Assembly: GCA_030167145.1 (NCBI GenBank)
Contig: CP126532.1
Location: 3,630,001-3,662,000, forward strand
Origin: Ktedonobacterales bacterium
Lineage (GTDB): Bacteria > Chloroflexota > Ktedonobacteria > Ktedonobacterales > JADMIN01
DNA length: 32,000 nucleotides
Direction: 5' to 3'
Below the pieces are notes generated by a model that saw nothing but the letters and a program-made list of their open reading frames with translations, did not search any database and was not told the origin of the DNA. Of the stretch, positions 7,506 to 19,076 are shown piece by piece; within the stretch, counting starts at the first letter, position 1; every line of letters begins with the position of its first letter. Position numbers and translations under genes: made by a program.

Positions 7506-8873
7506 ATGAGCTCCGATACAGCCGCGCGCGCATCGCTGGGCGTCTCGCTGGCGTTTCACATCGTCTTCGCGGCGGTGAGCATCGGCCTGCCGCTCATGTT
7601 CTGCATCGCCGAGGGCATCGGCCTGCGCAGACGCGACGCCACATGGTATATCCTGGCGCGGCGCTGGAGCAGAGCGTCGGGCATCCTGTTCGTCGTCGGC
7701 GCGGTTTCAGGAACGGCCCTATCCTTCGAATTTGGCCTGCTCTGGCCGCGCTTCATGGGGTTTGCCTCTGGTATTGTCGGGCTGATGTTCACGTTCGAGG
7801 GTGTCGCGTTCTTTATCGAAGCGATCTTTCTGGGCCTGTACCTGTACGGTTGGGACCGGCTGTCGCCGCGCACCCACTGGCTCTGCTCCATACCAGTGGT
7901 CATTTCCGCTGCCCTGGCCTCGCAGTTCATCGTCGCGGTGAACTCATGGATGAACACGCCCACTGGGTTTCAACTCGTCAACGGCAAGGCGGTCAACATT
8001 GATCCCTTTGCGGCGATGTTCAATCCCGCTGCCCCCGCCCAGGCGCTGCACATGCTGATCGCGGCGTATCAGGTGACTGGCTTCACTGTGGCGGCTGTCT
8101 ATGCGGTTGGGCTGTTGCGCAAGCGCAAGAATCCGTACCATATTCGTGGCGTGCAATTGGGCATGATCCTGGCGACGGTCATGGTGCCGCTGCAAGCGAT
8201 CGTTGGCTCCTGGATCGGCGAGATGATCGCACGGCAACAGCCGGAGAAACTGGCCGGCCTCGAAAGCCTTTTCCACACGACGACGGGCGCGCCCTTGACG
8301 CTCTTCGGCTGGCCCGACGCCTCCACCCAGCAAATATACTTTGGCATTGCCATCCCGAAGCTGCTCAGTCTGCTCTCGTTCAATAATCCCAATGCCACCG
8401 TCACCGGACTTGACGCCTATGCCCAGAATACCTGGCCCAGCCTCCCCATCACCCACCTGGCCTTCGACACCATGGCCACCCTTGGTGGCCTGTTCTTGCT
8501 GGTTCCCATCCTCTTCTGGGGCCTCTACTACTGGAAGAAGCGGACGGTTCCGACCGCGCGATGGTTCTTGTGGGTGCTGGTGATTTCCGGACCACTGACC
8601 TTCGTTGCTTTGGAGGCCGGTTGGGTTGCGGCTGAGCTGGGGCGCCAGCCCTGGGTCATCTACAACATCATGCGGACCAGCGACGGCTCGACCACCAATC
8701 CCGGTGTTGGCTTCTTCTTCTTCATCTTTCTGGCGATATATCTCGCTCTAGGCGTGGCCAGCGCCGGATTGCTGCTGCGGCTGGCGCGCGAACGAAAGAC
8801 CTTTGTCCCTGAGAAAAGCAGCTTGGAGACAAGCCAGCCAGTCAGCGGTGAGCCAGTCGGTGTTGAGTCATAG
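7506..8873 (+). CDS. cydA: Cytochrome bd ubiquinol oxidase subunit I
   Basis: GGAG RBS. The N-terminus LSLAFHIVFAAVSIGLPLMF..., multiple TM helices, and WVAAELGRQPWVIY near the C-terminus are characteristic of CydA (short Q-loop type, 455 aa). Confidence 0.9.
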   Translation: MSSDTAARASLGVSLAFHIVFAAVSIGLPLMFCIAEGIGLRRRDATWYILARRWSRASGILFVVGAVSGTALSFEFGLLWPRFMGFASGIVGLMFTFEGVAFFIEAIFLGLYLYGWDRLSPRTHWLCSIPVVISAALASQFIVAVNSWMNTPTGFQLVNGKAVNIDPFAAMFNPAAPAQALHMLIAAYQVTGFTVAAVYAVGLLRKRKNPYHIRGVQLGMILATVMVPLQAIVGSWIGEMIARQQPEKLAGLESLFHTTTGAPLTLFGWPDASTQQIYFGIAIPKLLSLLSFNNPNATVTGLDAYAQNTWPSLPITHLAFDTMATLGGLFLLVPILFWGLYYWKKRTVPTARWFLWVLVISGPLTFVALEAGWVAAELGRQPWVIYNIMRTSDGSTTNPGVGFFFFIFLAIYLALGVASAGLLLRLARERKTFVPEKSSLETSQPVSGEPVGVES

Positions 8874-9030
8874 ACCCATGGCGAAAGCCAGGGGCTTGCA
8901 GCTACCCCGCGCGGGGTGCCACGTCTGGCGGTATGACTGCCGCCCGGCGGCCAATATTGACCGCCGCGTTCAGGTCGGCATGGGCGGAGAACCCACACAC
9001 GACACAGAGGAACTTGGCTTGCGACTTCCG
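8845..9030 (-). ncRNA. Predicted omega RNA (reRNA) of TnpB: scaffold overlapping the tnpB 3' end and RE, with the guide read from flanking cydA sequence
   Basis: By analogy with characterised TnpB systems (e.g. ISDra2), where the omega RNA derives from the tnpB 3' end through the RE plus about 16-20 nt of flank. GC-rich palindrome ACCCCGCGCGGGGT at 8904-8917 plus the RE hairpin. Boundaries are not determinable from sequence alone. Confidence 0.3.
8875..8894 (-). repeat. Candidate right-end (RE) subterminal hairpin of the IS
   Basis: Plus strand CCCATGGCGAAAGCCAGGGG: 7-bp stem, GAAA loop, one bulged A (T on the tnpB strand). 16/20 identical to the LE hairpin, with a compensatory G-C/C-G swap in the inner stem. 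It starts 2 nt after the cydA stop codon. Confidence 0.6.
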
Positions 9031-10020
9031 ATTCGCTTTCTCACAATGCCCACAGTGGCTACACGTGCGGCTGGTGTTGCGCGGGTCCACCAAGACCACG
9101 CGCACGCCTGCCAGTTGCGCCTTGTAGGCAATGAAGGCGCGCAACTGCGCGAAAGCCCAGGAATGCAGCACTCTCCGTTGGCGTTTGCCCGTAACCGTTT
9201 GCTTCGCGCGGATCCGTTCGCGGATGTGCTTGAGGTCTTCAAGCGCAATCCCACGCGAAGTGCCTTTTGCCGTGCTGACCATGGCCTTCGAGAGACAATG
9301 ATTCACATCCTTGACGAAGCGCCGTTCGCGTCCGCTGCGCTTCTTGAGCAGCCGTTTCGCGCTCTTGGTGCCCTTCTTTTGGAGCTTGGCGCGGAAGCGG
9401 CTGTAGCGGGCGCGGACCTGATTGACATGGGCGTGCTTGGGACCGGTGGAGTAGTTCAAGAACTCGCCATCACTGGTGGCCGCCAGGGCGATGATGCCCA
9501 AATCTATGCCCAGGTAGTCTGCTGGTTCCTCTGGTGTCGGCTCAGGCGCATCCACTGTCACAGACAGAAAGAAGGTGGCGCTGCGCTTGCAATACAACAG
9601 GTCCGCTTGCCCGCGCATGCGTTCCAACCGGCCAGCAGCATACGCGCCGAAGCGGAACGGAATGTCCGCCCGCCCGTCCAGTGTCAAGAGCGAGATGCGG
9701 CCTGGCCCCGTAAAGCGGCAAATACGCTCGTCATAGACCATGGCGCCGTGCGGGCGAAAGTGCGGTTGTATCGTCCGGTCGCGCTTGTACGCTTCCACCA
9801 CTTTGGCGATGGCGCGAATGGTCATCTGCGACGACAAGCCGAACCGCTCGCGGATGTCATAGTAGACCAGTTTTTGCAGGTCCACTTTGTTGGCGCACTG
9901 CTCGGCAAACGCGGTGGCCGCCATGTCATTGCAGGCGGCGTTGAATGTTTCCAGCGTCCGCACCAGCGCAGCGCGCTGTTCGGGCGTCGGGGTGAGTTTG
10001 ACGAGCAGCGTTTGTTTCAT
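8902..10020 (-). CDS. tnpB: TnpB (OrfB) RNA-guided endonuclease of an IS200/IS605-family element
   Basis: Start taken at ATG 10020 (MKQTLLVKLTPTPEQ..., typical TnpB N-terminus; the track ORF extends to 10173). RuvC triad candidates are GIDLGI (D), IALEDL (E) and SAHADLNAAVNI (D). Zn finger CSHCGHC...CVVCG. Confidence 0.9.
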   Translation of the reverse strand: MKQTLLVKLTPTPEQRAALVRTLETFNAACNDMAATAFAEQCANKVDLQKLVYYDIRERFGLSSQMTIRAIAKVVEAYKRDRTIQPHFRPHGAMVYDERICRFTGPGRISLLTLDGRADIPFRFGAYAAGRLERMRGQADLLYCKRSATFFLSVTVDAPEPTPEEPADYLGIDLGIIALAATSDGEFLNYSTGPKHAHVNQVRARYSRFRAKLQKKGTKSAKRLLKKRSGRERRFVKDVNHCLSKAMVSTAKGTSRGIALEDLKHIRERIRAKQTVTGKRQRRVLHSWAFAQLRAFIAYKAQLAGVRVVLVDPRNTSRTCSHCGHCEKANRKSQAKFLCVVCGFSAHADLNAAVNIGRRAAVIPPDVAPRAG

Positions 10021-10069
10021 ACAGGCAGTGTACCATAGATTGAGGATACACGTCAGTTGGATCGTATCG

Positions 10070-10093
10070 CCTGTCGGCCTGTCGGCCTGTCGG
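10070..10093. repeat. Tandem 8-mer CCTGTCGG x3 inside the IS left end, between the LE hairpin and the tnpB start
   Basis: Three perfect consecutive copies read directly (10070-77, 10078-85, 10086-93). Confidence 0.9.
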
Positions 10094-10107
10094 CGGGGCG
10101 CATTCCC

Positions 10108-10128
10108 CCCCATGCCTGAAGGCAGGGG
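10108..10128 (-). repeat. Candidate left-end (LE) subterminal hairpin of the IS
   Basis: Plus strand CCCCATGCCTGAAGGCAGGGG: 8-bp stem, TGAA loop, bulged A at 10112. Same orientation and architecture as the 8875-8894 hairpin, as expected for IS200/IS605 ends. Confidence 0.6.
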
Positions 10129-10209
10129 CATCCTGCGCCATTTCTGGTGAACGAGTACACACGAGGGAATCACGTGTGCCTAGGAGCGTTGCAGAGTCGG
10201 AGGAGACGC

Positions 10210-11505
10210 ATGTCACAACTCACCTTGGCTACGTTGGCCGCGCTGCTCGGCTGGATTGCCCTCATTGCTTACGCCGTCCTCGGTGGCGCGGACTTCGGCG
10301 GTGGCATCTGGGATCTCTTCGCCCGTGGAAGAACCGCCGCCCGCGAGCGCAGCGCCATTGCCGGCGCCATGGGTCCGGTGTGGGAATCGAATAACATCTG
10401 GCTCATCTTTGTGCTCGTCATCACCTGGACCGCCTTCCCCATCGTCTACGCCAGCGTTTCAACAGCCCTCTTCATTCCGATCACCTTTGCGCTCATCGGC
10501 ATTGTGCTGCGCGGCGCGTCGTTCAGTTTTCGCTCCCATTACGGCATGCGTGTGGGGGCTGGCGTGGCATGGGGGCACGTCTTCAGCACGGCAAGCATCA
10601 TCACACCGTTTCTGCTCGGCACAGTGGCGGGTGCGCTGGCCGGTGGGATGATCCACGTGTCAGGCTCTCCCGCCCAGGTGCAAGCAAACCTCTGGACCAC
10701 CTGGACCACGCCTTTTGCGCTCGCCTGCGGGGCCTTCGCGGTTGCGCTCTGCGCGGTACTTGCCGCCACCTATCTGACGGTAGACAGCCACAACAATGGC
10801 GACCTGCTCCTGGCTGAGCGTTTTCGGCAGCGCGCCATCATCGCGGGCGCCGTGACGGCGGCTGTGGGGGTGCTGGCGGCAGTGCTGTCGAGCTTCCAGG
10901 CGCCAGTGCTCTGGCATGGGTTGATTGGCAAGGCGCTCCCGTTCTCGTTGGGCGCGATCCTGCTCGGTCTGGCGACTGCCGTGGCGCTGCTGCGCAATGC
11001 CTATGCGGCGGCTCGCATACTGGTGGCTGCGGGGACCGTGTTCATTTTCGCTGCCTGGGGTGTGGCCCAGTGGCCGTACTTCATCGTACCAGATGTGACC
11101 GTAGACAACGCCGCCAGCCCTTCATCGGTGCTGGGGCCACTGTTGATCGTCGCCCTGCTGGGTTTGATCCTGGTGCTGCCTGTGCTCTGGTATCTGTTCT
11201 CCATCTTCAAAGGCCCTGGCACACGCACTGGGCCAGCCACCGGCCCCCACGCTACGACGGCATCCTTCGTGGCATCGCTGCAACCCGCGAGCACATCCGA
11301 CCAGCCAAGCACGAGCGCCATGTCAGCCGCGCCAGTGCAGCCGTCCTCGGTCTCAGGCGGAGCAGTGCGCCAACAAGTGATACCAGTGCTCGCCTTCTCG
11401 CTCGCCGTCGCCGCCGCGACATTCATCACCGCTCTCTATGATGCCGTGCGCAATCGCGCCGGGTCGCGCTCGCGACACAGCCGCACGGAAGCGCCTTCTC
11501 CCTGA
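10210..11505 (+). CDS. cydB: Cytochrome bd ubiquinol oxidase subunit II with a roughly 95-aa C-terminal extension
   Basis: GGAGGAG at 10199-10205, then ATG 10210 (the track ORF starts at 10147). N-terminus LIAYAVLGGADFGGGIWDL is typical of CydB, with about 8-9 TM helices. The core ends near YLFSIFKG; a low-complexity linker and one extra predicted TM helix follow. Confidence 0.9.
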   Translation: MSQLTLATLAALLGWIALIAYAVLGGADFGGGIWDLFARGRTAARERSAIAGAMGPVWESNNIWLIFVLVITWTAFPIVYASVSTALFIPITFALIGIVLRGASFSFRSHYGMRVGAGVAWGHVFSTASIITPFLLGTVAGALAGGMIHVSGSPAQVQANLWTTWTTPFALACGAFAVALCAVLAATYLTVDSHNNGDLLLAERFRQRAIIAGAVTAAVGVLAAVLSSFQAPVLWHGLIGKALPFSLGAILLGLATAVALLRNAYAAARILVAAGTVFIFAAWGVAQWPYFIVPDVTVDNAASPSSVLGPLLIVALLGLILVLPVLWYLFSIFKGPGTRTGPATGPHATTASFVASLQPASTSDQPSTSAMSAAPVQPSSVSGGAVRQQVIPVLAFSLAVAAATFITALYDAVRNRAGSRSRHSRTEAPSP

Positions 11506-12506: not shown

Positions 12507-13415
12507 TTAGCTCCCCACGCGCTGCGCGCGCCAGTAGCGCCGGTTGCCCAGTGCGTCCCCCGGCTCATTGGCCGAGGTCACGACCCAGCCCGCGTGGTGC
12601 AAATGATTCAGCGCCTCCAGCACCAGGAATGGCCGCGCCGCCTCGACGGCATCCGGGAAGCGTGCGCGCAACATCTCCTGCACCTCGCTGAGCGTCAGGC
12701 CACCCGCTTCCGGCAGCACCGCATAGACCTGATCGGCCAGCCAGTGCTGCGCCTCCCAGCGCCCCTCCTGTTCGGGCGCGGGCTGCGATGGCATCGGCCC
12801 CTGCGACATGCGCGCCGTCGTGGGTGCGCCCGGATGCGGTGACGACACTAGCGGCGTAGATGGATGCACGAAGCGAATCGCAAACGTACAAACCGCATCG
12901 CCGCGCTTCATGCACGTTTGCTCGCTCACCAGCACACGCTCCCCGTAGCGAATCCCCGCCCCCTCAATCGCGCCATGCAGCAGCGAGCAGAGCTTGCGCG
13001 GGCTATCGTAATACAAATACATCCCCGTGGGATCGCCTGTCGTCTCTCCATACCCGAAGAGCGGCGGCCTGATACCCTCGCTCGCCTGGCTCATCTGCTC
13101 ATGCGCCTGGCTCATCATCAGCAACAGATCGCGTCCCCCATGCACCTGGTTCAGCAGATACATGCAGAGGCGGCTCGTCAGCCCATTGAGGATGAAATAG
13201 CGGCCATACTCTAGCAACAGCGTATCCACATCGGCCCGTGTGAGGCGGCTGGCCACCGCGACACCCGCCAGCAGGCGCTCATCTTCGTACACGCGGCTCG
13301 CCAGGGGCGCGTCCGACGCCGATTCGCCGATCCGCTGGCGATAGTCGGCGAGCAGCGACGTCCCAAAACGCTCAGCCAGATACTTCTCCCACGTGACGAA
13401 GACGAGTCCGTGCAT
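12507..13415 (-). CDS. H-NOX (haem NO/O2-binding) domain protein with Pro-rich linker and C-terminal winged-helix-like domain
   Basis: Aligns by eye to Tt H-NOX and sGC beta1. N-terminal MHGLVFVTWEKYL (Trp9). LLLMMSQAHEQM with His105 (codon 13101-13103). GIRPPLF. Y136-D-S138-P-R140 (YxSxR haem-propionate motif). LHGAIEG. Residues about 215-302 (LTLSEVQEML...LEALNHLHHAGWVVTSANEPGDALGNRRYW) look like a winged helix. Confidence 0.85.
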   Translation of the reverse strand: MHGLVFVTWEKYLAERFGTSLLADYRQRIGESASDAPLASRVYEDERLLAGVAVASRLTRADVDTLLLEYGRYFILNGLTSRLCMYLLNQVHGGRDLLLMMSQAHEQMSQASEGIRPPLFGYGETTGDPTGMYLYYDSPRKLCSLLHGAIEGAGIRYGERVLVSEQTCMKRGDAVCTFAIRFVHPSTPLVSSPHPGAPTTARMSQGPMPSQPAPEQEGRWEAQHWLADQVYAVLPEAGGLTLSEVQEMLRARFPDAVEAARPFLVLEALNHLHHAGWVVTSANEPGDALGNRRYWRAQRVGS

Positions 13416-13625
13416 GTGTTCTCCCCCGACATCATCTCTACACGAGGACTCCTATCCCCTCCCACAAAATCCTTGGCTAACACTATCGCACTACGATGCG
13501 CAACACAGCAATTTCATCCCCCAAAATGGAGGGGTATGAGGCAAATAAAGCCCCTTGTTGGCCACCACGAATGAGCGGTAGAGTGCGAAAGCGCATCGGA
13601 ACATACCCTGAGAAACGGAACTGAT

Positions 13626-13820
13626 ATGCGACTAACGGTTGTGCTTGAGCCAAGCGACGAGGGCGGCTACACGGTCTATGTGCCCGTGCTGCCCGGCTGT
13701 ATTAGCGAGGGTGAGACAGCCGAAGAAGCCCTGCAGAATATTCGCGAAGCCATAGACCTCTACTTGGAGCCATCAGTGCGCCATGAAATCGCGCCAGAAG
13801 ATGAACACCCGCTCGCGTAG
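13626..13820 (+). CDS. HicB-like (UPF0150) antitoxin-family small protein, no HicA partner seen
   Basis: MRLTVVLEPSDEGGYTVYVPVLPGCISEGETAEEALQNIREAIDLYLE matches the HicB N-terminal domain consensus as I recall it. The 3' 48 nt overlap the convergent recG end. Confidence 0.65.
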   Translation: MRLTVVLEPSDEGGYTVYVPVLPGCISEGETAEEALQNIREAIDLYLEPSVRHEIAPEDEHPLA

Positions 13821-16544
13821 CGGCGCATGCTCCAGCTTCTTCAGATATGGATCCTGCGACCACAGCCATTCCGCCTGCTCGCGCGCCTCGCTCAGCAGAT
13901 GCGTATCCGCCAGCCGCGCCACCTTTAGCTCCGGCAGACCGCTCTGGCGCGTGCCGAAGAAGTCGCCCGGACCGCGCATTTGCAGGTCCGCGTCGGCCAG
14001 CTCGAATCCGTCCGTTGTCCGCTCCATCACGCTCAGCCGCTCGCGTGCCACCGCGCTCGCCTCCTGGCTCAGTAGATAGCAGTACGATTGCTGCTGTCCG
14101 CGCCCCACGCGCCCGCGGAACTGGTGCATCTGCGACAACCCGAAGCGGTCCGCATCCTCGATCAGCATCACCGTCGCATTCGGCACATCCACACCCACCT
14201 CCACCACCGCCGTCGCCACCAGCACATCAATCTCGCCATCGCGGAAGGCGCGCATCACGCGGTCCTTCTCGGCGGGCTTGAGTTGCCCATGTACCAGCCC
14301 TAGGCGCAGATCAGGGAAGACCTCAGCCTTCAGCCGCTCATACTCCTTCACCGCCGATTTCGCCTCCAATGCCTCCGATTCCTCCACCAGCGGGCAGATG
14401 ATATACGCCTGCCGTCCGTTCGCCACCTCTTCGGCCACCAGCCGGTACGCCTCTTGCCGCTGCGTGCCCGCCCGCCAGCGCGTCACAATTGGCTGCCGTC
14501 CGGCGGGCAACTCATCCAAAATCGAGACATCCAGATCGCCATAGAGCGTCAGCGCCAACGTGCGCGGAATCGGCGTCGCCGTCATCACCAGCATGTGCGG
14601 GCTGTAGCCCTTCTGCCGCAACGCCTCACGCTGCTCCACCCCGAAGCGGTGCTGCTCATCCACCACCGCCAGCGCCAATTCCTTGAACTCCACACCCTCT
14701 TGCAGCAGCGCATGCGTGCCGATGGCCACCGCCGCCTCGCCGCTGGCCAGCGCGTCACGTGCGGCAGTTCGCTCTTTGGCCTTCTGGCTCCCCGTCAGCA
14801 ACACTACTTTCAGCCCAAACGGCGCCAGCAGCGCGCTCAAGCCGCGATAATGCTGCTCCGCGAGAATCTCCGTGGGGGCCAGCAGCGCGCCCTGGTAGCC
14901 ATTGGCGGCCGCCGCCAGCAGCGCCGCGCCCGCCACCACCGTCTTGCCGGAGCCGACATCGCCCTGCAGCAGGCGGCTCATCGGCTTGCGCTCCGCCATA
15001 TCCTTCAGTATCTGCCCAATCGCCCGGCGCTGTGCCTTGGTGAACGAGAACGGTAGTGTCCGCTCGAAACACGTCGCCGTCAGCGGCCACAGTCCCCCGC
15101 CCAGGGCCGTGCCAGCCACACCAGCGCCATCCGTCCCCTCTGTCGCAGGCGCATCAGCGAAGATCAGCGACGCGGGCGCGGGCAGCGCGGGCGCGGGCGG
15201 GCCATCGCGCCAGTTCGCGCGGCGCGTCAGCATCCCCATCTGGATCAAGAACAACTCGTCGAAGGCGAGACGCCGCCGCGCGGCATCTAACTCGCGCTCG
15301 CTATCGGGATAGTGCATCTGCGCCACCGCTTCGGGCAGCGGCTCCAGCTTGGCGCGCGAGCGCAGCAGCACCGGCAGGTGGTCGGGGATGAACGCCGAGC
15401 AGCGGTCCACGGCCCACTTGGTGAAGCGCCGCATCGCCTTGGGATGCAGCCCCTCCGTCAGGCCATACACCGGAACCAGCCGTCCTGTATTCAGCAGATC
15501 GCCCTGTTCCGGCAACTCGTGGCTGCGCACCCCGAACTCCACCCGGTTGCCGAAACGCTGCTTCACGCCCGTCGCCACAATAGACGCCCCGCGCGGCAAC
15601 TGCTTCAGCAGATACGGCTGGTTGAACCACGTCAGGCGGATCGCCCCCGTTTCGTCGCTGATCTGCGCGATGGTGCGCGTGCGCCCATTGCCGGTGCGCC
15701 GGTTCTCCACCTCCCAGATCCGCCCCAATATCGTGCTGACCTCGTCGAACGGCAGCGTGCCGATTTTGGCAAGTTTGCTGTAATCCCGATGCTCGCGCGG
15801 AAAGGTGAAGAGCAGATCGCGCACCGTCTCGATACCCAGCTTACGCAGGCGTTCAGCCTGGGTTGGCCCCACGCCCTGCACTGCCGTCACCGGCGCGGCG
15901 AGCAGATATTCGTCTTCAGGGCGCGGCGCTGGCCGGGGACTGACTTGTATCACCGCGCCCGCCGGATCGCTCGCGTCGCCGCCTGCTCGCGTCTGTGCCG
16001 CAGTCGCGGCCTCCGCCAGCGGCCAGCGCTCCTCGCGCGCTGGCGCAGCGTGCGTTCGCCCGGCTGAACCCGTGGGCGGACGTACCCCTGATGCTTCGGC
16101 GGCGCGCCCTCCTGCCGGTCGCGCAGGAGCGGGCACGGACGGCGATGTGGAAGGTGACACGGCGGGCCGTGTCGGGGCAGTATGCGCCCGCACCTTGATC
16201 GCTTCGATCAACGCCAGCGCAGCGCGAACTTTTGCCCCGCGCTGCATCGGATCGAGCGCGCGATACCCCGCGAAGAGCCGCGCGATAGCGTCTTCGGGCG
16301 GCGGACCAGACGAGCGCCCCGGCTCATTGGCAATGGTCCCCCGCGTCCGCGCCGCACGCACCTCAGCAGACCACCGACTCACGAACGCTTCGAGTCCCCC
16401 CGGCTTCACGGCGCTATCCTCGTGGCCCATGCGCTGCTCGTGCAGCAGCACCCGCCGCGCCCGTTCGATGAGCGCCCGCGCCACATCCGTATCCTGCGCT
16501 GTTCCGCTTGTCGCGCGTGTGTCTGCCACTGGCCCGCCTCGCAT
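13773..16544 (-). CDS. recG: ATP-dependent DNA helicase RecG (start uncertain; long N-terminal extension)
   Basis: HhH-like GVGPTQAERLRKLGIETVRDLLFTFPREHRDY. Walker A GDVGSGKT. DEQHRFG. TATPIPRT. QLHQ-like MHQFRGRVGRG. Start placed at ATG 16544, because the track ORF start 16700 would overlap the upstream kinase gene. Confidence 0.9.
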   Translation of the reverse strand: MRGGPVADTRATSGTAQDTDVARALIERARRVLLHEQRMGHEDSAVKPGGLEAFVSRWSAEVRAARTRGTIANEPGRSSGPPPEDAIARLFAGYRALDPMQRGAKVRAALALIEAIKVRAHTAPTRPAVSPSTSPSVPAPARPAGGRAAEASGVRPPTGSAGRTHAAPAREERWPLAEAATAAQTRAGGDASDPAGAVIQVSPRPAPRPEDEYLLAAPVTAVQGVGPTQAERLRKLGIETVRDLLFTFPREHRDYSKLAKIGTLPFDEVSTILGRIWEVENRRTGNGRTRTIAQISDETGAIRLTWFNQPYLLKQLPRGASIVATGVKQRFGNRVEFGVRSHELPEQGDLLNTGRLVPVYGLTEGLHPKAMRRFTKWAVDRCSAFIPDHLPVLLRSRAKLEPLPEAVAQMHYPDSERELDAARRRLAFDELFLIQMGMLTRRANWRDGPPAPALPAPASLIFADAPATEGTDGAGVAGTALGGGLWPLTATCFERTLPFSFTKAQRRAIGQILKDMAERKPMSRLLQGDVGSGKTVVAGAALLAAAANGYQGALLAPTEILAEQHYRGLSALLAPFGLKVVLLTGSQKAKERTAARDALASGEAAVAIGTHALLQEGVEFKELALAVVDEQHRFGVEQREALRQKGYSPHMLVMTATPIPRTLALTLYGDLDVSILDELPAGRQPIVTRWRAGTQRQEAYRLVAEEVANGRQAYIICPLVEESEALEAKSAVKEYERLKAEVFPDLRLGLVHGQLKPAEKDRVMRAFRDGEIDVLVATAVVEVGVDVPNATVMLIEDADRFGLSQMHQFRGRVGRGQQQSYCYLLSQEASAVARERLSVMERTTDGFELADADLQMRGPGDFFGTRQSGLPELKVARLADTHLLSEAREQAEWLWSQDPYLKKLEHAPLRERVFIFWRDFMAH

Positions 16545-16671
16545 GATCTGATCGCTTCGTCTGTGCTGGTCCCGCCAGCACGCCCGTTCACTCAGTATAG
16601 CGCGCCAACAGCGCCCGCTCAACTTTCGCGGCAATCGGCATAGCCCACCGCCATAGCATGCGCCGCGGCAT

Positions 16672-18270
16672 TCATGCCCCCGCGTCGGTGCTCCGGCCAT
16701 TCATGGCCGAGGCTGCCTCTTGCTCGCCCGCCACCGGCAGCGTGAACCAGAACGTCGCCCCAGCCCCCGGCGCGCCCTCACATCCCACCTGGCCACCATG
16801 CAGCTCGATAATCGTCTTGCTGATGTACAGCCCCAGCCCCAGCCCCACGCCAGAACCGCTCTGCACCGCGCTCCCCGGCGCCTGGTAGAACCGCTCCCAG
16901 ATGTGCTCCTGCTCAGCCGCCGAAAATCCCACCCCTTCATCCCGCACACTCACCCGCACCATCCGCTCGCCTTCCTTCACCACCGCCACGTGAACCGGCT
17001 GCTCCGGGCGCGAGTACTTCAGCGCATTCGTCAGGTAATTCGTCAGCGTCTGCCGGATGCGATCCGCATCTGCCAGCACTTCCACCGCGCGCGTCTCCTC
17101 CTCCGCTGCCACCACGACACTCCGCTCAGGATGCTCCAGTCGTTGCTCCTCCACACAGTCGCGCACCAGCGCGATCAGGTCAAAGTGCGCGGGACGTAGC
17201 AGCAGTTTGCCCCCCTGGATGCGCGACAAATCCAGCAGATCATTGACCAGCCGTTCCAGCCGGTTCGTCCCCGCCACCGTGCGATCAATCGCTGGCAGCA
17301 ATGGCTCCACTATATCCAACGCCCGCATTTCGCCTTGCTGTTCCGCGCTCACCACCCGCCGCAACTGCCGCGCAATCAACTGCAGATTGCCCTTCATCGC
17401 CGTCAGCGGCGTCTTGAGTTCATGGCTGGCGATGCCAATATAGTCATCCATCCGCCTGGTCGTCTCTTGCAGCACTCGCACCTGCGTCTGTGCCTCCGCC
17501 TGTGCCATCTCCCGCGCCACCCGCTCGCGCAGCGCCGCCGTCCGCCAGAGCAGCGCGAAGGCCAGCGCCAGCAACAGGAGATTCCCCGCCAACATCGCCA
17601 GGAATATCTCCAATGCGGATCGCGATACCCCCGCCGCACTTGTCTTCTGGTCGCTCAGCATGCGATTCTCCGCGCCTTCGATCTGTCCGATCTCCGCGCG
17701 CAATTGGCTCAGCGCCGGCTGCGCTTCGCTCGAACCTAGCAAGTTCAGCGCCTCAGCGGTCTGCCCCGTCTGCCGCAGCGTGATGAGCTTCTGCATGTCA
17801 TCCAGTTTCGATATCGCCTGCTGTTGTATCGCATCCACTTGTTGCTTCTGCGCCGTGCTATCTACTGACACCCGCAATTGCCGCATCTCCACGACTACTT
17901 GCGAGCGCGCGCTGAGATAGAGTTGCAGGTACTCGCGATCTCCGCTCAGCACGTAGCGCAGCATCCCTACCTCTGCCTCATCCAGGTTCGTCATCACGCC
18001 ATGTACCTGCGTCAGCGTCGCCTCCGTCTGCGACACCGCCTGCTCCTGTTTGCTCACAGCCTGCACATTCCACAGTGTTGCCAGCACATTCGCCAGCAGC
18101 CCCAACGCCAGCAGTGTCGCCACCACGGCGAATCCATAGCGACGTAACGCTGCCCCGCGCTGCTTCTTATTCTTCCCATCATTCTTCCCATCGTGCCCCG
18201 CACGCCACCGCGATCCCCGGCCTCGTATCCCCGCGCCATGTGTTGCCGAAATTGCGCCGTCTGCCGCCAT
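16672..18270 (-). CDS. Sensor histidine kinase with extracytoplasmic CHASE3 domain
   Basis: GGAGGA 5 nt upstream of ATG 18270. TM helix, then the CHASE3-like LDEAEVGMLRYVLSGDREYLQLYLSA, then a second TM. H-box IASHELKTPL, N-box LTNALKYS, G1 VRDEGVGF, G2 GSGVGLGLGLYIS. Confidence 0.85.
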   Translation of the reverse strand: MAADGAISATHGAGIRGRGSRWRAGHDGKNDGKNKKQRGAALRRYGFAVVATLLALGLLANVLATLWNVQAVSKQEQAVSQTEATLTQVHGVMTNLDEAEVGMLRYVLSGDREYLQLYLSARSQVVVEMRQLRVSVDSTAQKQQVDAIQQQAISKLDDMQKLITLRQTGQTAEALNLLGSSEAQPALSQLRAEIGQIEGAENRMLSDQKTSAAGVSRSALEIFLAMLAGNLLLLALAFALLWRTAALRERVAREMAQAEAQTQVRVLQETTRRMDDYIGIASHELKTPLTAMKGNLQLIARQLRRVVSAEQQGEMRALDIVEPLLPAIDRTVAGTNRLERLVNDLLDLSRIQGGKLLLRPAHFDLIALVRDCVEEQRLEHPERSVVVAAEEETRAVEVLADADRIRQTLTNYLTNALKYSRPEQPVHVAVVKEGERMVRVSVRDEGVGFSAAEQEHIWERFYQAPGSAVQSGSGVGLGLGLYISKTIIELHGGQVGCEGAPGAGATFWFTLPVAGEQEAASAMNGRSTDAGA

Positions 18271-18395
18271 TACATTCCTCCATCGCATCACCGGCGATCT
18301 CCGTGGCGCTATTGGCCCGCGTCTATGCTGCGCGTCTACCCGCCTCGCTCTCCAACTCTTCTTGCAGAACATGTGCCGCACGCCTGGATGCTCAC

Positions 18396-19076
18396 CTAAT
18401 CGAGCAGCCCGCTCGCGCCATTCCAGATCAAAAAACCGCCCACCAACAGCGACACCGCAATCGTGATGAAGCGCCCACGCACCTTGATCCAACCGGACAA
18501 AACATCGAACCGCTCTGGCGCCCACCGGTTCACGAGAATCGGTGTCAGCAGCAGCGCTTCCGCTGCCAGCACATACAGCGCATAGGCGACAACACTGCCC
18601 ACCACGGCTGTCTCAGCCTGGCGAATCACCCCAAGCGCCGTCAGCGTGAAGAGCCACGCCCGCGCCGAGGTTGTCACCAGCAATGCCCCCAGCCCAAATG
18701 CCCTGATCGGCGTGAGCGCCGAGATCAGCGTGATCCATTTCGTGATCAGCCCGTCCGGTTCGTCTGGATCTCCGCGTGTAACGATCTGCTGCAGCGCCGC
18801 CGCCCACATCAGAATCCCGGCGACCAGTTTCAAGAGCGACACGATGATCTCGACTTCTCCCGGCCGGTGGGACACATCGGCCACGCTAATCAGCGCGCCG
18901 AACACGATGCCCTGCACCAAACGCACAGCCGTCACACCACCCGCGAACGCCGCCGCCCCCTTCTGGCCTTGCTCAGACCTCAGCAGCGAGAGGACCAGCA
19001 GGATCCAGGTGGGCATCATCATGCTGCCGATGGCATAGGGGAGCAACTGGATCAAGACATTCGCCAATGCAGCCAC
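18396..19076 (-). CDS. GAP-family (DUF2910/Sap-like) integral membrane protein; start uncertain
   Basis: Six or so hydrophobic helices (LLPYAIGSMMMPTWILLVLSLL ... ITIAVSLLVGGFLIWNGASGLL) resemble the GAP family. The upstream 100 aa of the track ORF are Arg/Cys-rich and overlap the opposite-strand gene, so the start is moved to GTG 19076. Confidence 0.55.
   Translation of the reverse strand: MAALANVLIQLLPYAIGSMMMPTWILLVLSLLRSEQGQKGAAAFAGGVTAVRLVQGIVFGALISVADVSHRPGEVEIIVSLLKLVAGILMWAAALQQIVTRGDPDEPDGLITKWITLISALTPIRAFGLGALLVTTSARAWLFTLTALGVIRQAETAVVGSVVAYALYVLAAEALLLTPILVNRWAPERFDVLSGWIKVRGRFITIAVSLLVGGFLIWNGASGLLD

Follow-up and report, generated by a model that had tools for sequence, protein, structure and literature searches.

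A stretch of 32,000 nucleotides from a Ktedonobacterales bacterium (assembly GCA_030167145.1, contig CP126532.1, positions 3,630,001 to 3,662,000), referred to below as the window, contains on its reverse strand a complete gene whose product joins a haem NO/O2-binding (H-NOX) domain to a winged helix. We interpret the protein encoded by this gene as a candidate transcription factor responsive to nitric oxide (NO). The coordinates of the gene, its functional residues and its neighbours are collected in Table 1. The ATG start codon is preceded by a ribosome-binding site (GGGGGAG, 13421-13427), and it is considered sound because the homologues all begin at the same MHGL/MQGL motif. The protein is 100% identical to P0001, a ‘hypothetical protein’ of a Ktedonobacterales metagenome-assembled genome.

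Table 1. Features of the H-NOX-winged-helix gene and its surroundings (positions in the window)
Feature	Position	Strand	Basis or remark
H-NOX + winged-helix gene, complete, 302 amino acids (aa)	12507..13415	-	open reading frame (ORF) listing and translation; stop codon 12507-12509
H-NOX domain, residues 1-184	12864..13415	-	Pfam HNOB, PDB H-NOX sequences, AlphaFold2 (AF2) model
His105, predicted proximal haem ligand	13101..13103	-	alignment to Shewanella oneidensis (So) H-NOX His103; codon verified
Y136-x-S138-x-R140, haem-propionate motif	12996..13010	-	alignment to So H-NOX YxSxR
Leu145, distal-pocket position equivalent to Tyr140 of Thermoanaerobacter tengcongensis (Tt) H-NOX	12981..12983	-	ungapped register Y136+9
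C143, E165, C168, C176, counterpart of the 3-Cys + His/Gln zinc/redox site	12888..12989	-	So H-NOX alignment
Pro-rich flexible linker, residues 185-213	12777..12863	-	low predicted local distance difference test score (pLDDT), Pro content
Family-specific winged-helix domain, residues 214-302	12510..12776	-	AF2, Foldseek
Predicted recognition helix H3, P262-H274, with R261 immediately before	12594..12632	-	helix 262-274 in model
Beta-hairpin wing with conserved RRYWR (R292-R296)	12528..12584	-	strands 278-280 and 294-296 in model
Upstream intergenic region, presumed promoter	13416..13625	-	sequence
cydA	7506-8873		cytochrome bd subunit
TnpB/Cas12f-like (OrfB_IS605, IS200/605-type tnpB) gene	8902-10173	-	between cydA and cydB, opposite strand
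cydB	10147-11505		cytochrome bd subunit
HicB-like antitoxin ORF, 64 aa, shorter than the Pfam model	13626-13820	+	divergent from the H-NOX gene
recG	13773-16700	-	3' end overlapped by the HicB-like ORF
CHASE3-HisKA-HATPase histidine kinase	16672-18525	-	3.3 kb upstream, beyond recG; nearest kinase

An initial annotation, made by a model from the letters of the window, had assigned residues 1-185 to an H-NOX domain, and both profile and structure comparisons agree with it. The match to Pfam HNOB (PF07700) takes in residues 2-164 and profile positions 1-162 of 163; its score of 69.8 bits (E=3.3e-19) exceeds the cut-off of 25.5. When PDB sequences were searched, H-NOX proteins from Shewanella, Nostoc and Caldanaerobacter (formerly Thermoanaerobacter) tengcongensis were matched at E=6e-6 to 1e-4, the best of them being Shewanella 4u9b (E=6e-6), and sGC beta-1 appeared as a weak match. 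The full-length AF2 model superposes on the solved So and Nostoc (Ns) H-NOX structures 4u99, 4u9b and 2o09 with template modelling (TM) scores of 0.81-0.84, normalised to the target, and E values around 1e-10.

The ligand residues named by the same annotation (His105 as proximal ligand, Y136-S138-R140 and Trp9) stood up equally well. In the sequence alignment, His105 coincides with the proximal His103 of So H-NOX, and Y136, S138 and R140 with its YxSxR motif. All five residues, together with Asn77 and Pro117-Pro118, show no variation among 34 homologues that are 54-71% identical. The proposal that Leu145 occupies the distal position was also upheld: counting nine residues from Y136 leads to Leu145 in the window protein and to L or V throughout the family, with no Tyr in any member. 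Tyr140 of Tt H-NOX, nine residues after motif Tyr131, falls at the same position. Binding of O2 by H-NOX proteins depends on a Tyr in the distal pocket (PMC8738867), so the absence of this residue predicts that no stable O2 complex is formed. The sequence thus predicts that the N-terminal domain is an NO-binding sensor that excludes O2; haem binding, NO binding and selectivity are presumed for the H-NOX-winged-helix protein.

A different view of the N-terminal domain would make it either a haem-free, V4R-like binder of small molecules (‘hydrocarbons’) or an O2 sensor. H-NOX and V4R share a superfold, and several observations favour such a view: Pfam V4R matches residues 136-181 weakly (E=1e-4, below the cut-off), Bet3/TRAPP folds are found among the distant structural matches, and JGI records bear names such as ‘predicted hydrocarbon binding protein’. 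The V4R match is, however, limited to the C-terminal part of the H-NOX domain, as is consistent with distant fold relatedness, while the HNOB match extends over the whole profile (E=3e-19). Furthermore, the proximal His and the YxSxR motif do not vary, and the lack of a distal Tyr argues against O2 binding. We therefore regard both versions of this explanation as very improbable.

The segment that follows the H-NOX domain had been described as a Pro-rich linker, and this description holds. Residues ~185-213 contain 28% Pro and have a pLDDT below 50 in the full-length AF2 model, and the length of the linker ranges from ~12 to ~60 residues across the family.

The C-terminal domain was modelled alone by AF2 from a 23-sequence alignment. 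The resulting model has a pLDDT of 89 and a predicted TM score of 0.78, and shows an H1-beta-H2-H3-beta-wing-beta arrangement. In the numbering of the isolated domain, DSSP places helices at 3-22, 31-41 and 51-63, a bridge at 29, and strands at 67-69 and 83-85; the full-length model has the same topology. Upon comparison with PDB structures using Foldseek, all of the top 50 matches were winged-helix domains (TM 0.5-0.66, normalised to the query; probability 0.85-1.0), and ~80% of them are DNA-binding winged helices. The structural neighbours include AlkX/YcaQ, Fur/PerR/Zur/Nur, the ORC/Cdc6 winged-helix domain (WHD), forkhead, histone H1/H5, PadR/LmrR, MarR and SSV1 F-93. The best matches are DNA-binding domains, none of them a dedicated module for protein interaction, and the conditions for refutation named in the initial annotation were withstood as far as they can be checked in silico. 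Model and matches thus confirm the winged-helix fold that the initial annotation had seen in the last 85 or so residues, and on which its interpretation depended.

Conservation within this domain is concentrated in a limited set of residues. L234, P235, G239, P262, L272, G276, D287, R292, W295 and R296 are invariant in the 34 homologues; R261 is nearly so, and R293 and Y294 are conserved in at least 90%. Basic residues are found where winged helix-turn-helix (wHTH) proteins contact DNA, namely at the end of H2 (R250/R252), at the start of H3 (R261) and in the wing (R292-R296), and they are conserved in both subfamilies described below. Among the 23 members, Pfam matches below threshold were mainly, though not only, to wHTH families (MCM4_WHD, Rrf2, MarR, PadR and the Crp HTH). 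DNA binding by the winged helix is accordingly our working assumption.

A HMMER profile of the C-terminal domain was run against 1.84 billion representative proteins and matched 63 of them. Of these, 44 were retrieved, and every full-length sequence among them (16 of 16, 272-317 aa) was an H-NOX fusion; most of the short ones were fragments of such fusions. Four matches (P0126, P0127, P0160 and P0168) have unrelated N-termini and may be chimaeric or mis-called ORFs. The only significant match that is not a fusion was P0177 (E=7e-6), a stand-alone, PadR-like metagenomic protein of 118 aa that matches Pfam PadR at E=3.5e-5. Hence, the C-terminal winged helix is a conserved, family-specific domain that is almost confined to the H-NOX fusion.

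The match to P0177 hints, at the level of sequence, that the domain has a distant origin in the PadR family. The helix-3 pattern L..L...G(L/W)V and the basic aromatic wing (RRYWR in our protein) appear to resemble their PadR counterparts, and both LmrR and PadR are present among the structural matches. The link between the window protein and PadR is, however, transitive, as it passes through P0177: the window protein has no Pfam match to PadR (PF03551), and just one of the 23 members reaches E=0.099. A bridging profile could not be built, as P0177 has a single relative. Another difference is that the C-terminal dimerisation helix of PadR proteins is missing, the window protein ending 6 residues after the last strand of the wing.

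Homologues of the window protein form at least 615 clusters at 90% identity; the 120 among the matches listed are nearly all ~280-330 aa long, with 98-100% query coverage. When one genome was scanned for each GTDB species, the gene was located at 68 loci, all of them in the class Ktedonobacteria. Cultured genera that carry the gene are Ktedonobacter, Dictyobacter, Tengunoibacter, Ktedonospora and Ktedonosporobacter, and two paralogues are present in some genomes.

Two subfamilies can be distinguished. The larger one, found in Ktedonobacteraceae, combines a basic winged helix (net charge +2 to +6, isoelectric point (pI) 9-11) with a linker of ~12 residues, and is the carrier of the operon and promoter evidence presented below. 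The other contains the window protein (WIN) as well as those of loci L004-L011 and L039; here the linker, rich in Pro, Ser and Ala, has ~29-60 residues, and the winged helix contains the pattern RPF.VLEALNHLHHAGW. L061 and L065 were considered as members of the window subfamily, L061 also as a bridge between the two; L061 was rejected because its winged helix is basic and of the short-linker type.

When the neighbouring ORFs of the loci were clustered to find recurrent partners, two genes emerged. One of them encodes a nitric oxide synthase (NOS) oxygenase and shares both cluster and orientation with the H-NOX-winged-helix gene at 11 loci (L015, L018, L038, L041, L042, L044, L046, L049, L050, L055 and L065; for instance, L041:6804-7988 and L015:2942-4261). 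The NOS gene may lie on either side and is directly adjacent in most of the 11 loci; at L044, the second recurrent gene is found in between. The identity of the enzyme is supported by matches to Pfam NO_synthase (E ~1e-157), to the haem domain of eNOS (E=3e-122) and to the NOS of B. subtilis (E=3e-114). The Ktedonobacteria protein is a NOS oxygenase without a fused reductase domain. At these loci, NOS and H-NOX-winged-helix genes are apparent members of one operon.

The second recurrent gene encodes a PPOX/PNPOx-type flavoprotein of ~350 aa, predicted to use flavin mononucleotide and TIGR04025-like in two stretches, which is co-oriented in the same cluster at 13 loci. Recurrence is listed for L012, L018, L019, L022, L023, L029, L030, L044, L051, L056, L061, L066 and L069, and for L001-L003; an example is L022:4080-5141. 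A PDB sequence search with the PPOX-like neighbour gave no match. The flavoprotein could be the redox partner of NOS, or else an enzyme that handles NO or haem. Altogether, NOS, PPOX or both are co-oriented with the H-NOX-winged-helix gene in 22 of 67 loci, two of which have both. Because the loci that bear them are scattered over the tree of H-NOX-winged-helix proteins, the pattern fits an old linkage that has been repeatedly broken.

In one clade (L012, L020, L024, L029, L033, L034, L040 and L056), a ChrB_N/PaaX-like gene is found 0.1-4 kb downstream of the H-NOX-winged-helix gene, as in L024:9181-9876.

Inspection of individual upstream sites in the Ktedonobacteraceae subfamily revealed a box, CTAAAAGTACYATT, ahead of operons made of H-NOX-winged-helix, PPOX and NOS genes. 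The box follows the pattern CTAAAAGTAC(T/C)ATT and has a palindromic AGTACT core. It takes the form CTAAAAGTACTATT at, among others, L060:7868 and L012:6724, and further examples are found at L016:7889, at L061:6763-6776 and around position 6691 of L046. Additional copies are located 106-240 nt upstream of PPOX or NOS genes that head an operon, and several promoters have a second AGTAC copy, either direct or inverted. The flanks of the box cannot be aligned between lineages.

Allowing at most one mismatch, 45 matches to the box were found in 0.94 Mb searched on both strands, and 15 of them fall, in sense orientation, within the 400 nt that precede an H-NOX-winged-helix gene. Since such upstream zones make up ~1.4% of the search space, ~0.6 matches would be expected by chance. 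The box was then validated on held-out loci: a position weight matrix (PWM) built from 17 sites was tested on 48 unused loci, with 910 control windows for comparison. Scores above the 95th control percentile were reached in 14 of the 48 loci, compared with 2.4 expected (Mann-Whitney p=6.7e-5). A possible second member of the regulon at L061:15823 was discarded, as it has no clear downstream gene and the assembly is rich in frameshifts there.

The position of the box relative to the promoter was also examined. A -10 hexamer (at least 5 of 6 positions identical to TATAAT) follows 21 of 27 boxes, compared with 9% of random control positions. In 12 sites the -10 hexamer lies 42-45 nt from the centre of the box, and in 5 sites the two are 32-34 nt apart. 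With this spacing, the centre of the box falls near -55 or -45, that is, at two positions one helical turn apart and upstream of -35. Such geometry is typical of an activator site and suggests that the operon is activated. Of the candidate DNA-binding proteins, only the H-NOX-winged-helix protein is encoded in every operon with a box, and the box is its putative operator. That this protein binds the box, and that regulation is positive, are both inferred.

The window gene itself gives a different picture. Neither a convincing sigma-70 promoter nor an operator-like palindrome or inverted repeat was found in 13416-13625. Upstream regions of the loci do not share an exact palindrome, and a generic motif search by expectation maximisation in these regions performed marginally above shuffled sequences. 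A block TTTTGGGGGAT is present at 13516-13526 on the reverse strand, ~100-115 nt upstream of the start codon, and occurs once in the window. This block, in the form CCATTT(T)GGGGGAT / CCATTTGGGGGAT, is common to WIN, L039, L004 and L005, and may reflect the relatedness of these four members.

Our preferred interpretation, which we hold to be somewhat more probable than its alternatives combined, is that the family consists of cytoplasmic one-component transcription factors responsive to NO, with three parts: an H-NOX sensor, a flexible linker and a DNA-binding winged helix. The operon linkage to NOS and the promoter-phased box of the sister subfamily lend independent support to this interpretation. 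The H-NOX domain would bind haem through His105 and the Y-S-R motif, and would accept NO but not O2. Binding of NO would break the Fe-His bond and relax the haem, thereby altering the surface of the H-NOX domain. The altered surface may then release or re-orient the winged helix, or else change dimerisation, and the occupancy of the promoter would change as a result. Contacts with DNA would be made by helix 3, from R261/P262 onward, and by the basic RRYWR wing. The linker, being disordered, long and of variable length, speaks against rigid allostery; we propose that the winged helix is tethered to the H-NOX domain and serves as its partner, much as kinases and cyclases do for stand-alone H-NOX proteins in trans.

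In the Ktedonobacteraceae subfamily, the likely target would be the protein's own operon, often including NOS oxygenase and PPOX genes, through CTAAAAGTACYATT near -55 or -45. In this way, transcription and the endogenous synthesis of NO would be joined in a direct feedback. A more far-reaching proposal, plausible in our opinion but somewhat short of probable, is a self-contained NO circuit in which the NOS oxygenase, possibly with PPOX as redox partner, makes NO, and the H-NOX-winged-helix protein senses it and activates its own operon via CTAAAAGTACYATT at ~-55.

Several observations weigh against a regulator of this kind. The length and disorder of the linker argue against a rigid allosteric path from haem to winged helix. 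The C-terminal domain does not match any Pfam or NCBIfam family, and the Foldseek E values of 0.03-0.25 indicate similarity at the level of fold. Moreover, a minority of the structural matches are winged helices that do not bind DNA, such as cullin WHB, the N-terminal domains of O-methyltransferases and LACTB2. The left half of the box is stronger than the right, and another factor could bind it. Covariation between the presence of the box and the residues of helix 3 and the wing is uninformative, as these segments are nearly invariant. The winged helix of the window subfamily is acidic, with a net charge of -3 and a pI of 5.7, and an informative conserved neighbour is lacking; neither NOS nor PPOX is found within the 32-kb window or beside the other loci of the subfamily. 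Lastly, the AAAAGTAC box is absent upstream of the window gene at up to two mismatches, and the best PWM score in that region falls at the 88th percentile.

Alternatively, the winged helix may be a protein-interaction or dimerisation module; as an adaptor, the H-NOX protein would then relay the presence of NO to an unlinked partner, for instance a kinase, RNA polymerase or an enzyme. The acidic winged helix of the window subfamily, for which this explanation is especially pertinent, the non-DNA-binding structural matches, the absence of a curated DNA-binding family and the upstream region without operator or box all speak in its favour. We consider it rather unlikely, however, in view of the basic cluster (R250/R252, R261 and R292-R296) that both subfamilies conserve at positions of DNA contact, and of the predominance of DNA-binding proteins among the structural neighbours. 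In addition, the sister subfamily combines a basic winged helix with a box that is specific to the operon and phased with the promoter, and no conserved partner gene is found nearby. The transcription factor model is transferred to the window protein by homology, and our confidence is reduced at this step because its subfamily has an acidic winged helix and lacks both the box and the NOS/PPOX context. The window copy is the least well-supported member of the family.

The nature of the signal raises a further objection. C139, H161, C164 and C172 of So H-NOX align with C143, E165, C168 and C176, and all four residues are invariant in the 34 homologues. The fourth position of the putative zinc site is thus an invariant Glu165 where known sites carry His or Gln, and zinc binding is uncertain for this reason. 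The four residues may form a variant metal or redox site. Ktedonobacteria are aerobes. Oxidation of Cys residues at the 3-Cys + His/Gln zinc site activates the H-NOX proteins of Vibrio (Vc) and Caulobacter (Cc); in Caulobacter, an obligate aerobe, the NO-bound form is inactive and Cys oxidation is the sole activating signal (PMC12329717). The conserved Cys3 motif of our family, as read from sequence, allows an oxidant or thiol-redox input, either instead of NO or besides it.

One may thus envisage a transcription factor that responds through Cys143, Cys168 and Cys176 (plus Glu165) to oxidants or thiol redox state rather than to NO. The invariance of the three Cys and of the fourth position, the precedent of Vc and Cc H-NOX, the aerobic life of the class and a DJ-1/PfpI gene that neighbours four loci of the window subfamily are in agreement with this idea. 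Against it, the fourth ligand is Glu instead of His or Gln and the zinc site is putative; the haem ligands are equally invariant; and the sharing of an operon with an NO synthase favours NO as the signal. We find an exclusive thiol input unlikely. The two inputs do not exclude each other, and an NO-responsive transcription factor may possibly be thiol-redox-responsive as well.

The surroundings of the gene in the window offered little guidance. The H-NOX-winged-helix gene lies tail-to-tail with a gene for a PF04199 ‘putative cyclase’, with 1 nt between the stop codons; PF04199 is a family distinct from the nucleotide cyclases. As the initial annotation had remarked, there is no adjacent kinase or cyclase partner: the neighbours are the PF04199 gene, the HicB-like ORF and recG. 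The histidine kinase beyond recG is not kept beside the gene in relatives, where kinases of a generic family are the sole exception. In the 65 loci that were clustered, no specific kinase, GGDEF/EAL/HD-GYP protein, cyclase or methyl-accepting chemotaxis protein (MCP) is a conserved partner; a generic cluster of histidine kinases and response regulators is found at ~2 kb in 13 of them. The annotation had also drawn attention to a cytochrome bd/NDH-2 island nearby. Of the neighbours in the window, cydA and cydB included, none recurs beside the gene in the 65 other loci. This context was rejected as a clue to function, since it is unconserved even in the closest subfamily, and its proximity is probably coincidental because the neighbours recur nowhere else. 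The cydAB operon is apparently split by the insertion of tnpB. No Rfam family was detected in the window.

The absence of any known fusion between H-NOX and a DNA-binding domain, also put forward in the initial annotation, agrees with the literature, as full-text searches did not yield a description of one. A 2022 review of bacterial H-NOX proteins includes kinase, c-di-GMP, quorum-sensing and MCP routes only (PMC8738867). Stand-alone NO-sensing H-NOX proteins, such as Shewanella oneidensis HnoX, those of Vibrio cholerae and Nostoc Alr2278, have the same fold, proximal His, YxSxR and Cys-motif positions and likewise lack the distal Tyr. They are, however, single-domain proteins of ~180 aa whose targets, reached in trans, are encoded next to them: a histidine kinase, a diguanylate cyclase/phosphodiesterase or a quorum-sensing kinase (PMC8738867). 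In the window protein, the effector is a winged helix fused in cis, and no such partner gene is conserved nearby. The H-NOX-MCP proteins of obligate anaerobes, exemplified by Tar4 H-NOX of Caldanaerobacter/Thermoanaerobacter tengcongensis, are also covalently fused to their output; they have a distal Tyr, bind O2, are membrane-bound and direct chemotaxis (PMC8738867). The window protein, by contrast, has Leu at the distal position, is soluble and ends in a winged helix.

The same working logic is found in CooA (CO), DNR (NO) and RcoM (CO), in which a haem sensor and a DNA-binding domain share one polypeptide, so that binding of the gas alters binding to the promoter. Their sensors are of unrelated fold, with a cNMP-binding-like domain in CooA and DNR and a PAS domain in RcoM, and their DNA-binding domains (CRP-type wHTH and LytTR) belong to curated families, in contrast with the H-NOX domain and family-specific winged helix described here. 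NsrR (Rrf2, Fe-S) and NorR (non-haem Fe GAF, AAA+ and HTH) are also one-component designs that lead directly from NO to transcription. Cofactors and folds are different, and Rrf2 was a sub-threshold match in 2 of the 23 members. In MsvR (wHTH and V4R) and in the V4R-containing XylR/DmpR, a sensor with weak similarity to the C-terminal part of H-NOX is fused to a DNA-binding output. The NCBIfam model of MsvR (NF053755) matches residues 140-180 faintly (E=0.057, 13.1 bits against a cut-off of 220), so that the window protein does not belong to MsvR; furthermore, MsvR has its wHTH at the N-terminus and lacks the haem ligands.

The coexistence of NOS and H-NOX in one bacterium was reported as exceptional in Silicibacter sp. 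TrichCH4B (PMC4436077). There, a stand-alone H-NOX is encoded beside a histidine kinase and signals to c-di-GMP, and the NOS has a fused reductase (PMC4436077); in Ktedonobacteria, a NOS oxygenase gene and the H-NOX-winged-helix gene are co-oriented in one cluster. Altogether, the family is a new domain architecture made of known parts (H-NOX and winged helix). Its winged helices form a new family restricted to the lineage, and its NOS-H-NOX operon is previously unreported.

The system lends itself to experiment, as cultured strains of Ktedonobacter and Dictyobacter carry the gene and a candidate operator has been defined; a switch for NO that has two domains and a known DNA site would, in addition, be an appealing choice for a genetically encoded biosensor. 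The linkage with NOS bears on a question that the literature states as open, namely the target of NOS-derived NO in bacteria (PMC4436077). Should the self-contained NO circuit proposed above prove real, it would include the first H-NOX to act as a transcription factor in its own right, and bacteria would for the first time be seen to couple NOS-derived NO directly to transcription. With a DNA-binding domain fused directly to H-NOX and kept throughout a bacterial class, the H-NOX repertoire would gain a new type of output and the shortest possible pathway from NO to gene.

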